64,000 bases of DNA from an uncultured Burkholderiaceae bacterium. GTDB taxonomy: Bacteria; Pseudomonadota; Gammaproteobacteria; Burkholderiales; Burkholderiaceae_D. Below are positions 46,097 through 64,000 of this stretch, in pieces (the first letter of the stretch is position 1; each line of letters starts with the position of its first letter). The notes beneath the pieces are model-generated. The model was not told the DNA's origin, did not search any database, and saw nothing but the letters and a program-made list of their open reading frames with translations. The translations under genes and the position numbers were made by a program. The DNA is taken from positions 5,644 through 69,643 of the forward strand of contig CAYWNE010000005.1 of NCBI GenBank assembly GCA_964459555.1, read 5' to 3'.

Positions 46097-49000
46097 TTAA
46101 TACGACGCTGCGCCGATCGCCGAGACTTCTTTGCCATCACTAATCCAGTGTTCATTATTGGCCGAGAAGTAGGTGATCATGACTTGCAATTGATGCTCAC
46201 GCAATTTCTTATCAAATGAATGCGCCGCTTCAGGATCGCTGATGGAGATCGCCGTTAAACTTTCGCCTGGTAGGATTTTTTGGCCGACCAGCGGCAAGCT
46301 CTTCCAAATCAAATGATCATTCGGACCTAACACGGCTTCAAGAGCCGTCTTGGCATCGGCGACAGCATGACCATCAAGTAGGATTTCAATTTTCTTGATG
46401 ATGCCATAACCGGTGCCACGATTGCGAATCACCCAACGGAAACCAGCTTCATCAATCTCAATCGACCATCCCAAAATCGGGAAACCCAAGCCTTGCCGTT
46501 GTGGTAGAGCGCGTTGGCGTTGAGGTAGTTCACGCTGCGAACGCAAATACAAGTAACCGGAAATGACGCCCGCGAGAATGATGCCGATGGAAATGATGAA
46601 TGGCAGATTGCCTTTTGAAAGACCCGTCAGATAAGGATCGTAGAGCAGCAGCAAAATAAAGATCAAAATCGGCGGGACGATATTGAAAGCCAGCACCCAG
46701 AGGAAGTAGCGCTTAATAAAGTTCTGTACCTCGCAATACTTGGCAAACAACACGGCGATCAACACAGCGATCAAAAAGAAGACCGCTAAGGCAATTTGTA
46801 AATACCAGCGCTCGACGCAGGCAAAACGCGCAATTGCTGAGGGTAGTTTGTCTGCTTTGTTGGACTCGCGGAAGTTACGCAGAATACAGAGAGCGATTTG
46901 TTGTCCACGCACACAAGGCTCGGCCATATTCAAAGTCGGCTTGGCGATGTTTTCAAAGTCCGGTGCCCATAGCCCCATGCCACCGAAATTGTCACTGGCA
47001 TACACCACGTCATCTTCGAGCTGTTGCCAGTTGCGATTGTCGAATTGCATCACAGGTATCACACTACGTAGGAATTCAGCACGGGCGTTGCCATGTAAGC
47101 CTTGCTCGTTTTCGATGTTGAGGCGTAGCTGCTTTTTGGAATCGTTGCTCGGTTCATTGAGCAGAACTAAAAAGTAAGTTTCGCTGACATCAGGATCGCC
47201 AGCACTGGCGCGACTCTTCATTTCGTTTTTCAAGCGAATCAAATTCGGCAGGGCGAAGGCACCAGTGCGTCCTTCACTATCGTCACTCAATACCGATTGG
47301 GTCATGACCACGTTGATGCCAAGCTTTTCCTTCCGCAAAGTCTTGTGCAGATTCATGAAGAATTCATTGAACAAGGTGGTTGAATCGATGTCGGTCGGAT
47401 AGTTCTGGAAATAGAGCGTGATGCCATCGCCACGTGTGACTGGCGCAGCGGCGCCGAGGCTCAACACAGGACGCATCTTCGACGCTGTATCCGTCAAACG
47501 TGTATGCAAAAGATTCTTGATATTGCTGACGAGTTTGGAGAGGATGGCCTTCTTATTGTCGCGCGAATAGCGCTTCCAATCACCATTCCAATCATTCTTT
47601 TGGATCACCCAATCTACTTTCGAGTTGTACTGATGCGCTAAGCGAATAAATTGATTTTGTTCGGCCGAGCCATCTTTGATATCAAACGGTGCGGCACCAA
47701 GACGGAAATCACCGACGTTGTCGACGGTGAGGCCGAAGTAAGCAACGCGATTGAGCACATGGAAATTCATGGTCTGCGTGGCTTTTTGATTATTCCAATA
47801 CGGATAGAAGGCGTAAGACACCCCAGCGAAATCATCAAGTGCACAGCCGCAATCGCCACCTTTCAAAGTGATTGGTGCGATCTCGTCGGGCATCGCTTTC
47901 TTCGCCATATTCTCAACCGGTAAGGCCAGATAACTGAGATAAATCTCTTCAATCAGACGACGGCTTTCTTGGAACGAGGCTTTGTCGCACTGGCTGACTT
48001 GCAAGCGCAGGCGTTTCAATTCTGAGAAAGTTTTGGCCGCATCAAAATCACGAGATACTCGGCCATCCGCACTCTGTGGTATCACATTGCTGAGATCTTT
48101 TGCCAGCAAATCAAATTCCTCGTCGGGCATACGCAGCCCAGCAACATAGAGATTGCTGGTCGGTGAATTCATTTTACAAGCGCCTATGCCCATGATCATT
48201 TTCGAAATGGCGGCACTACGTAACAAACTGACTTCCGGATAACTGACGTCCTTGATTTGCCCGAGTAAGCGCACCAGAACCGCAGGAATCCCAGTGTTTT
48301 GGATATTGCCCTTGAGCTGCGCTTTGATATTGCTGATCGATTGCTCAGTTAAATGAATATTGTCGAACACTCGCGACGCATCGGCCACAATCTCTCGTTC
48401 ATCTTCGCTGAGATCCAAGCTAGCGCTGCTGATTTTCTCAGTGATGAAGTCGTCGAATAATTCCCTTGTCTTAAAGTATTGCGTTCCTTGCACGCGTAAT
48501 TCGTCGATGATAGCCGCGGGGAATTCACTGGTGTCTTTCAGGCGCTTGAGCGCAGATTCGTCAACCAAGTAGCCATCGAAGTCCCCAGCGTAGCGTTCGA
48601 TCAGTGGCCAGATCTGGCTGACGATATGTTCACGCCCCCCCATGGCTTTGCTGACGGCCACACGCAGTGCTTCGCTGGAATTGAATTCCTTATCTTTGAG
48701 GGTGGAGAGGATCTGTACGATTTGGTCCTTGCCTCCGAGGATATCTAAATCACCTTGTGTGAGTTTGAAATAATAAAAGGCACTTTCGTCGAAGTTTGAA
48801 CGCGGTGCCATGCGCGGCGCCGTCTTACGTTGGCCACGGAAACGATTGACCAAATCGATCAATTCTTTGTCGTTACCTTCTCTGCGAACTCTGAAATCTT
48901 GCAGCTTTTGCTTTTCAGGCTGCATGAAATCCCAAGCTTCGAATTCTGGGCTCATCAAAATCGTGAGTTCATCTTTGTGTCCCGCAGCGAAGCGCGCAAT

Positions 49001-64000: not shown

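Follow-up and report, generated by a model that had tools for sequence, protein, structure and literature searches.

An operon for a phage-tail-like contractile injection system (CIS) whose last gene encodes a membrane protein raises the question of whether its particles leave the cell or act from inside it. Such an operon lies at the end of the 64,000-nucleotide stretch analysed here (the window), taken from an uncultured Burkholderiaceae bacterium (GenBank assembly GCA_964459555.1, contig CAYWNE010000005.1, positions 5,644 to 69,643 of the forward strand). A first-pass annotation made from the letters alone had read positions 46,097 to 64,000 as part of an extracellular CIS (eCIS) operon with non-canonical accessory genes. 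We consider it about 75% probable that the locus instead encodes a clade Ib CIS of the SalCIS subtype, that is, a machine tethered to the inner membrane and firing outward. The label 'extracellular' is doubtful because the features that had been flagged as unusual are explained by membership of the SalCIS type.

SalCIS was described from Salmonella enterica subsp. salamae (Ejaz et al., Nat Commun 2026;17:5272; PDB 9R9A, 9RCE, 9R9H and 9R9N). It belongs to eCIS clade Ib, its particles are ~600 nm long and 18 nm wide (Nat Commun 2026;17:5272), and in tomograms they are seen as bundles beside the inner membrane, with no secretion or release detected (PMC13266070). Its membrane protein has a Sec signal, three transmembrane (TM) helices and a periplasmic domain like the spore cortex enzyme SleL, and the authors propose that this protein, together with the trimeric short fibre SalCis13, links the baseplate to the inner membrane (PMC13266070).

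The structural core matches SalCIS

The operon has one sheath gene, and the best PDB chain for its product is that of SalCIS (9r9h_T, E = 3.9e-196), aligned over the full length (residues 3-507 against 2-519). The next-best matches are AlgoCIS Alg2 (E = 1e-109) and the cyanobacterial tCIS (E = 1e-98); those to Afp and PVC are far weaker (E = 1e-45 to 1e-54). The same ranking is found for the baseplate. Cis11, which matches the profiles PF04865 (E = 1.5e-6) and TIGR02243 (E = 9e-11), has its best PDB sequence match in 9rce_A (E = 1.4e-108), followed by AlgoCIS 7aeb_G (E = 4.6e-92) and tCIS 7b5h_AH; with phmmer, its residues 180-354 and 471-1270 align to residues 141-315 and 554-1310 of 9rce_A, and the protein is ~220 amino acids (aa) longer than Alg11. 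Cis12 is closest to 9rce_B, 'SalCis12' (E = 5.2e-64), then to Alg12 (E = 1.6e-54), tCIS All3315, Pvc12 and Afp12. Its N-terminus matches TIGR02243 (E = 5e-6) and carries the HDPG motif that had been picked out at first reading in this 845-aa protein.

Two cap proteins head the operon instead of following the ATPase gene. One is the 191-aa Cis16a, with the Pvc16_N domain PF14065 (E = 1.7e-36), and the other a 263-aa protein that resembles 9r9n_C, 'SalCis16b', over its full length (E = 3e-4) and matches nothing else in the PDB. The statement that no cap is present thus holds for the region after the ATPase, but not for the operon, which opens with Cis16a and a Cis16b-like adaptor. The gene of the Cis15 ATPase (PF00004, E = 8e-29) reads in the same direction as the other genes of the operon. 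An ATPase gene is visible in 12 related loci and comes after the tape-measure gene in 11 of them (phmmer E = 1e-123 to 1e-293 for complete genes), and the Herbaspirillum ortholog is 56% identical. Since all comparable parts (sheath, Cis11, Cis12, Cis16b and the membrane protein treated below) match SalCIS chains best, we assign the locus to the SalCIS subtype.

Architecture of the operon

Positions refer to the window; genes further upstream were read on the source contig (L001, 226 kb), located through an exact match to the 274-aa protein, and on a sister contig (L007), whose proteins are identical to those of L001 and which reaches further upstream. Seven open reading frames (ORFs) on the minus strand, followed by a terminator, make up the part inside the window, in transcription order:

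61272..64000, minus strand: Cis11, gp6 / Baseplate-J-like cage protein; C-terminal 908 codons of a 1274-aa gene (whole gene at L001 6180-10004, start beyond the window)
60451..61275, minus strand: Cis13-type short fibre (probable), 274 aa; from AlphaFold2 (AF2) fold and position
60117..60428, minus strand: two-repeat protein, 103 aa; internal repeat
57580..60117, minus strand: Cis12, gp6/gp7-like baseplate wedge, 845 aa; PDB sequence match and HDPG motif
51001..57576, minus strand: Cis14 tape measure, 2191 aa; PF19268 CIS_TMP
49642..50988, minus strand: Cis15 AAA+ ATPase, 448 aa; PF00004
46097..49645, minus strand: homolog of the SalCIS membrane protein, 1182 aa; match to PDB 9r9a_B
46043..46076: hairpin terminator; closes the operon, shared with a convergent Pirin gene

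These ORFs lie where the first-pass annotation had placed them, and its junctions and terminator are borne out. Computed from the coordinates, the overlaps are 4 nt (61272-61275), 1 nt (60117) and 4 nt (49642-49645), and the intergenic gaps 22, 3 and 12 nt. Six of the 15 base pairs in the terminator stem are G-C; the loop is 4 nt long, the tail T-rich, and the whole lies between convergent genes. That this is the distal half of a CIS operon, as first read, is confirmed by the CIS_TMP match of the tape measure (PF19268, E = 1.6e-87), the Afp15-type ATPase and the gp6/gp7-like baseplate proteins.

The sheath, tube, spike, PAAR and gp25 genes that had been predicted beyond coordinate 64000 are all present on the source contig. 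In transcription order, the upstream half consists of the Pvc16_N cap (191 aa), the 263-aa protein, the sheath (507 aa), two gp19-type tube proteins, a DUF5908 protein, CIS_tube, a VgrG-like spike (596 aa), PAAR (99 aa), gp25 and the 1274-aa Baseplate_J protein that enters the window. In the order that we propose, the operon starts with the Cis16a cap and the Cis16b cap adaptor, the DUF5908 protein is the plug and CIS_tube the initiator. The operon is complete with 17 genes and is flanked by housekeeping genes on either side. Core parts were assigned with Pfam and NCBIfam, the CIS-specific families being PF19268, PF19266, PF19265 and PF14065 together with the AAA ATPase, and the eCIS core set is present (tape measure, ATPase, cap, sheath, tube, VgrG, PAAR, gp25 and Baseplate_J).

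The terminal membrane protein

The last gene encodes an 1182-aa protein that has no significant Pfam or NCBIfam family but matches PDB chain 9r9a_B (E = 5.2e-14) in three regions, 151-328, 595-767 and TM 937-1024, which correspond to a peptidoglycan-binding-like segment, the core of a barrel and a block of three TM helices. Entry 9R9A is the integral membrane protein of SalCIS, named SalCis19 in the preprint (bioRxiv 10.1101/2025.06.01.657177) and SalCis20 in the paper (Nat Commun 2026;17:5272). It was not among the Foldseek matches of the 1182-aa protein (library copy to 2026-04-08), so the link between the two proteins rests on sequence.

Hydropathy indicates a signal peptide and three TM segments. 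The AF2 model (predicted local distance difference test, pLDDT, 74) starts with a signal peptide and a disordered, Ser/Thr/Ala-rich linker (1-129). A helical domain that holds the peptidoglycan-binding-like motif (138-590) and a (beta/alpha) barrel (594-900) follow, then three long TM helices (937-1038) and, modelled with confidence, a beta-sandwich (1058-1176). Because the N-terminus would be exported and the number of TM helices is odd, the beta-sandwich is predicted to face the cytoplasm. It is found in 31 of 34 homologs, where it is at least as conserved as the barrel, but the 864-aa Salmonella protein and the Herbaspirillum protein lack it. The helical and C-terminal domains gave no matches in sequence searches of Pfam, NCBIfam, PHROGs and PDB. 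Within the signal peptide (window 49540-49645) we also noted a possible lipobox, L-V-A-A-C, whose Cys is residue 20, and a candidate signal peptidase I site between LAA and Q.

The barrel has the fold of glycoside hydrolase family 18 (GH18); its Foldseek matches are chitinases and SleL (4s3k), as well as the non-enzymatic narbonin and SI-CLP. Enzymes of GH18 carry the catalytic motif DxxDxDxE. Across the family studied here the corresponding site reads GDG(I/V)T(L/I/V)YF(Q/P/A)N, and the acid at the catalytic position is missing. From this motif alignment, the GH18-fold domain may bind the cell wall without cutting it. Both the SalCIS preprint and the paper call SleL an N-acetylmuramoyl-L-alanine amidase, while the fold matches obtained here are to GH18 glycosidases.

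The membrane protein belongs to the operon. Its gene shares 4 nt with the ATPase gene, and the terminator is downstream of both. The gene order Cis12, tape measure, ATPase, membrane protein is kept in nine betaproteobacterial loci from several genera (Undibacterium, Solimicrobium, Herbaspirillum and metagenome-assembled genomes of Burkholderiales), the most distant member being just 26% identical. It is very improbable that the gene is an unrelated envelope or cell-wall neighbour that plays no part in the machine. The absence of a Pfam family and of a homolog in the Afp and PVC loci would agree with such a neighbour, and so would the SalCIS counterpart being barely detectable in purified particles (relative abundance 0.004; PMC13266070), but the 4-nt overlap, the position of the terminator, the synteny retained at 26% identity and the homology to an operon-encoded membrane protein of SalCIS all argue against it. 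With its terminal gene homologous to the SalCIS membrane protein and its comparable core parts closest to SalCIS, the system was probably wrongly called extracellular, and the accessory genes once thought non-canonical are conserved parts of a published subtype and not specific to this locus.

The probable short fibre and the 103-aa repeat protein

Neither the 274-aa nor the 103-aa protein matched anything in Pfam, NCBIfam, PHROG or PDB-sequence searches. The AF2 model of the 274-aa protein, built with 62 homologs (pLDDT 85.9), shows N-terminal helices followed by a beta-rich body, and Foldseek relates it to trimeric fibre proteins, namely the C-terminal domains of Bdellovibrio fibres (8ond, E = 4e-5; 8onf; 8ol4), T4 gp9 and phage tailspikes. 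Homologs that are 52% and 45% identical lie at the corresponding position in Nitrosomonas and Herbaspirillum, respectively, and the family reaches into the CIS of Bacteroidota. The Bdellovibrio fibre work is cited in the SalCIS paper for its SalCis13 anchoring model (PMC13266070). Based on fold, position and family distribution, the 274-aa protein is probably a Cis13-type short fibre.

The 103-aa protein was rightly described as a two-repeat protein: its halves align to each other (E = 9e-5) as ~45-aa repeats with the motif ...L(I/L)xEALxxxP(F/Y)xxVxxL(I/L)xxLxxQ, and this duplication is conserved in 56 homologs. The family comprises 112 representative clusters among 1.84 billion proteins, nearly all of them standalone proteins of 90-125 aa. 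A relation to Utp12 appeared weakly in 10 of the 56 members, always below threshold, and was set aside as helical-repeat noise; two long proteins matching the repeat (P0307 and P0341) proved unrelated, with CarboxypepD_reg plus a type IX secretion sorting domain and low complexity, respectively.

The distribution of these genes was surveyed by searching species-representative genomes with the C-terminus of the tape measure and annotating the loci by homology, which gave 14 loci, none of them from Salmonella. The 103-aa and the membrane-protein genes are both present in all five betaproteobacterial loci that show both positions (this window, Solimicrobium, U. flavidum and two Herbaspirillum). 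In four loci from Flavobacteriia, both genes are lacking and the fibre gene lies immediately next to Cis12. Because the two genes travel together, we propose that the 103-aa protein may be an adaptor specific to the subtype that bears the membrane protein.

Tape measure and expected tail length

The tape measure has conserved ends (N-terminal ~75 aa and C-terminal ~190 aa) and a variable middle, is rich in Leu, Ala and Gln throughout, and contains no internal repeats along its 2191 aa. Compared with U. cyanobacteriorum (L009 2080-8649), identity is 28-41% in the middle and 90% at the C-terminus, and the lengths are 2191 and 2189 aa; in the same genome pair the neighbouring ATPase is 95%, Cis12 82% and the membrane protein 80% identical. 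Such divergence at constant length fits selection on the length of the tape measure.

For AlgoCIS, experiments have shown that the tape measure sets particle length, each residue adding 0.229 nm; over the known CIS the slope is 0.2156. The two calibrations, extrapolated from shorter particles, would give a tail of ~472-502 nm for 2191 aa. For comparison, SalCIS is ~600 nm long (Nat Commun 2026;17:5272), and the type VI secretion system (T6SS) subtype iv of Aureispira, with its Cis14 tape measure, 420 nm (bioRxiv 10.1101/2024.01.29.577165). Tape measures range from 1526 to ~2540 aa in related betaproteobacterial loci and are ~1150-1270 aa in Flavobacteriia loci.

Payload

An effector homolog with HEXXH or DUF4157 is reported in every operon of the SalCIS cluster (Nat Commun 2026;17:5272). 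Neither a PF13699-like ORF (phmmer with the Herbaspirillum protein) nor an HExxH ORF was found in the 64-kb window or in 10 kb upstream, and VgrG and PAAR have no extension domains. The earlier observation that no soluble toxin follows the ATPase is correct. Herbaspirillum has a convergent PF13699 gene directly after the membrane-protein gene, where the window has the terminator alone.

Some related observations concern effectors elsewhere. The SalCIS effectors SalCis20 and SalCis21 of the preprint (bioRxiv 10.1101/2025.06.01.657177) were renamed SalCgo1 and SalCgo2 in PMC13266070, and the effector said to be conserved in all operons is a DUF4157 protein according to the preprint and SalCgo2 according to PMC13266070. 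In Solimicrobium silvestre (NZ_PUGF01000007.1; L015 15355-18588) a same-strand ORF of 1078 aa directly follows the Cis19-like gene; it contains a region resembling eCIS_core/DUF4157 (E = 6e-50 against the Herbaspirillum protein) and is a candidate large effector.

A proposed mechanism and its alternatives

In the mechanism that we propose, the baseplate would form around the spike in the cytoplasm, tube and sheath would reach the ~0.5 micrometre set by the 2191-aa tape measure, and the tail would be closed by the double cap, with the ATPase aiding assembly and cargo loading. The terminal protein would be exported through Sec and sit in the inner membrane, with the beta-sandwich at its C-terminus in the cytoplasm and its GH18-fold and peptidoglycan-binding-like domains in the periplasm. 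The short Cis13 fibres would dock the baseplate on this membrane protein, and the 103-aa protein might act as an adaptor. From such docking it would follow that the machine fires outward through the envelope of its producer, as in T6SS subtype iv, and that no free particles are released.

Several points weigh against this tethered, outward-firing reading. The SalCIS authors themselves left the orientation and geometry of anchoring open and call the interaction transient (PMC13266070), and AlgoCIS, likewise of clade Ib, is a released eCIS. No effector was found in the operon, in 46 kb downstream or in 10 kb upstream. The middle of Cis11 that does not align is 116 aa long against 238 aa in SalCis11 and falls at the 'extended domain IV', a helical domain placed at residues 419-549 of SalCis11 (Nat Commun 2026;17:5272). 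For the membrane protein, the predicted topology relies on hydropathy, on the AF2 model and on an analogy with 9R9A, the 274-aa protein is equated with Cis13 indirectly, and the expected tail length is an extrapolation.

The alternative most directly opposed to tethering is a canonical extracellular CIS like Afp, PVC or AlgoCIS, whose particles would be built in the cytoplasm, set free by lysis and attached to targets by their fibres, with the membrane protein as a wall-remodelling or lysis/release factor. All eCIS core families are indeed present, including the tape measure, the ATPase and the Pvc16 cap, the second-best structural relative AlgoCIS is released, a GH18/SleL-like periplasmic domain could in principle act on peptidoglycan, and the SalCIS authors allow that release may have been missed, the activating conditions being unidentified (PMC13266070). 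We nevertheless regard this alternative as unlikely, since the closest characterised relative forms membrane-proximal bundles in the cytoplasm and shows no release, and the 274-aa fibre is short, of a type that the SalCIS authors liken to the membrane-anchored T6SS subtype iv. Moreover, the family-wide lack of the GH18 catalytic acid argues against a lytic enzyme, and a conserved domain predicted to lie in the cytoplasm would be superfluous for a pure lysis factor.

A defective myophage tail or tailocin, or a canonical T6SS, is scarcely credible. The sheath, tube, gp25, gp6-like and VgrG/PAAR folds are common to all contractile systems, but no capsid, portal, terminase, lysis or integrase genes occur in 10 kb upstream or 46 kb downstream. 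Among 50,697 phage records, the best sheath is 36% identical over the C-terminal 38% only and none covers more than 46% of the query, and the accessory proteins had no matches in the PHROG search. The locus has one sheath gene, whose 507-aa product is of the phage/eCIS type, and lacks a TssB/C pair, TssJLM and ClpV, and the AAA protein scores 16 bits against TIGR03345. The first-pass annotation had named capsid, portal and terminase genes, TssBC/TssM/ClpV or a failure to match core families as signs against its identification of the system; the flanks and the profile searches gave none of these.

At the level of a variant, the locus does differ from SalCIS in its in-line ATPase, the lack of a local effector, the degenerate GH18 site and the added domain predicted to be cytoplasmic. 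A step further would be to regard the loci of Undibacterium and Oxalobacteraceae as a functionally distinct SalCIS sub-variant, in which the GH18-fold domain would serve as a non-catalytic wall binder and the beta-sandwich and 103-aa protein as a docking interface. The tape measure, which would fill the lumen and be expelled on firing, could then itself be the cargo, or the machine might have a cell-autonomous role such as regulated lysis. This extended view is quite doubtful.

Host organism, distribution and significance

The host is an Undibacterium-like freshwater betaproteobacterium. Its sheath and that of Undibacterium sp. LX40W share 92% identity, its membrane protein is 78% identical to a hypothetical protein of U. 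cyanobacteriorum, and close relatives among the sheath matches listed come from Solimicrobium, Duganella, Variovorax, Nitrosomonas and many metagenomes; no Salmonella sheath is within the best 120 of these matches. The operon is chromosomal. Plasmid records gave only CIS of Bacteroidota and other distant CIS, with identities of at most 53%. The upstream flank encodes a methyltransferase, solute-binding proteins and UvrD, and the downstream flank Pirin, DoxX, a flavodoxin-like protein and LysR, the latter flank being syntenic with the complete genome of Undibacterium cyanobacteriorum. Approximately 4-7 kb past the end of the operon (window 39113-42240, plus strand) are two 490-aa genes, for a GH109-like oxidoreductase/glycosidase and a beta-lactamase-family PF00144 protein, which look like ordinary envelope or carbohydrate metabolism and have no CIS link.

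Two related contigs have a different arrangement. In Variovorax sp. GB1P17 (JBPJZR010000006.1; L011 10001-11527) there is a lone sheath gene, 76% identical to that of the window operon, with acetyltransferases, an amidase and a PBP as housekeeping neighbours; the 10 kb to its left and to its right contain no further CIS gene. Possible readings are an orphan remnant, a chimera made in assembly, or a sheath put to another use. On a contig of the Nitrosomonas oligotropha type (L010 2334-9806) no cap genes precede the sheath, and directly upstream are large genes for PAS/HisKA/response-regulator and PAS/GAF/GGDEF proteins, which hints at cyclic di-GMP or two-component control and at caps encoded elsewhere.

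Systems of the SalCIS type have been described only in 2025-2026 and from one organism. Betaproteobacteria of freshwater and soil, such as Undibacterium, Solimicrobium, Duganella, Herbaspirillum and Nitrosomonas, commonly carry the subtype, and several of them are cultured. Within the literature library searched, no paper linked Undibacterium to contractile injection systems. Betaproteobacterial tape measures of 1500-2500 aa would correspond to tails of 0.3-0.55 micrometre. The 103-aa protein is a conserved and previously uncharacterised component, and the predicted cytoplasmic domain of the membrane protein could be the missing docking surface. The apparent loss of the GH18 catalytic acid would call the 'hydrolase' label into question. 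In genome annotation, free 'extracellular' CIS should not be the default label for such loci.

Comparison with known systems

SalCIS shares with this locus the single sheath, the double cap at the head of the operon, the Cis11/Cis12 cage baseplate and, probably, a short Cis13-type fibre. In both, the operon encodes an integral membrane protein that has three TM helices, a Sec signal and a GH18/SleL-like domain in the periplasm; the SalCIS particle is very long, as is expected of the one encoded here. The two differ in several respects. The ATPase gene is here in line between the tape measure and the membrane protein, whereas in SalCIS it is on the opposite strand with the effectors, and no SalCgo-type effector lies near the present locus. 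The membrane protein is 318 aa longer than its SalCIS counterpart, with a disordered N-terminal linker and a conserved beta-sandwich of ~120 aa, and its GH18 site reads GDG(I/V)T(L/I/V)YF(Q/P/A)N, in contrast to DGITLDID in the Salmonella protein. The region of Cis11 that corresponds to domain IV is shorter than in SalCIS, and the host is an environmental betaproteobacterium, not Salmonella. Neither the 103-aa protein nor the tape measure is mentioned in the main text of the SalCIS paper.

T6SS subtype iv of Amoebophilus asiaticus and Aureispira (bioRxiv 10.1101/2024.01.29.577165) is likewise of clade Ib, has eCIS-like genes, is attached to the inner membrane and fires outward. Its tails are long and uniform, with a length set by a Cis14 tape measure, as would be expected of the present system, and a Cis11 cage surrounds its spike. 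It is found in Bacteroidota, and Aureispira has another trans-envelope complex together with extracellular antennae. AlgoCIS (Algoriphagus machipongonensis; 7AEB) is the second-best relative for sheath, Cis11 and Cis12 and also has a double cap. It differs in being a released particle of ~120 nm with a 526-aa tape measure, in carrying Cgo1 and Cgo2 in the locus, and in lacking a membrane protein of the SalCIS type.

Afp of Serratia entomophila and PVC of Photorhabdus have in common with the locus the sheath, tube, VgrG, PAAR, gp25, Afp11, Afp12, Afp14, Afp15 and Afp16 families. They are, however, clade Ia systems: the sheath has three paralogs, one cap gene follows the ATPase gene, the Afp13 fibres are long, toxin genes lie downstream and the particles are released into the medium. 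The CisA-dependent CIS of Streptomyces coelicolor (eLife 2025;14:RP104064) belongs to another CIS clade and a Gram-positive host, but shares the concept of a cytoplasmic CIS that needs a dedicated membrane protein for its function and firing.

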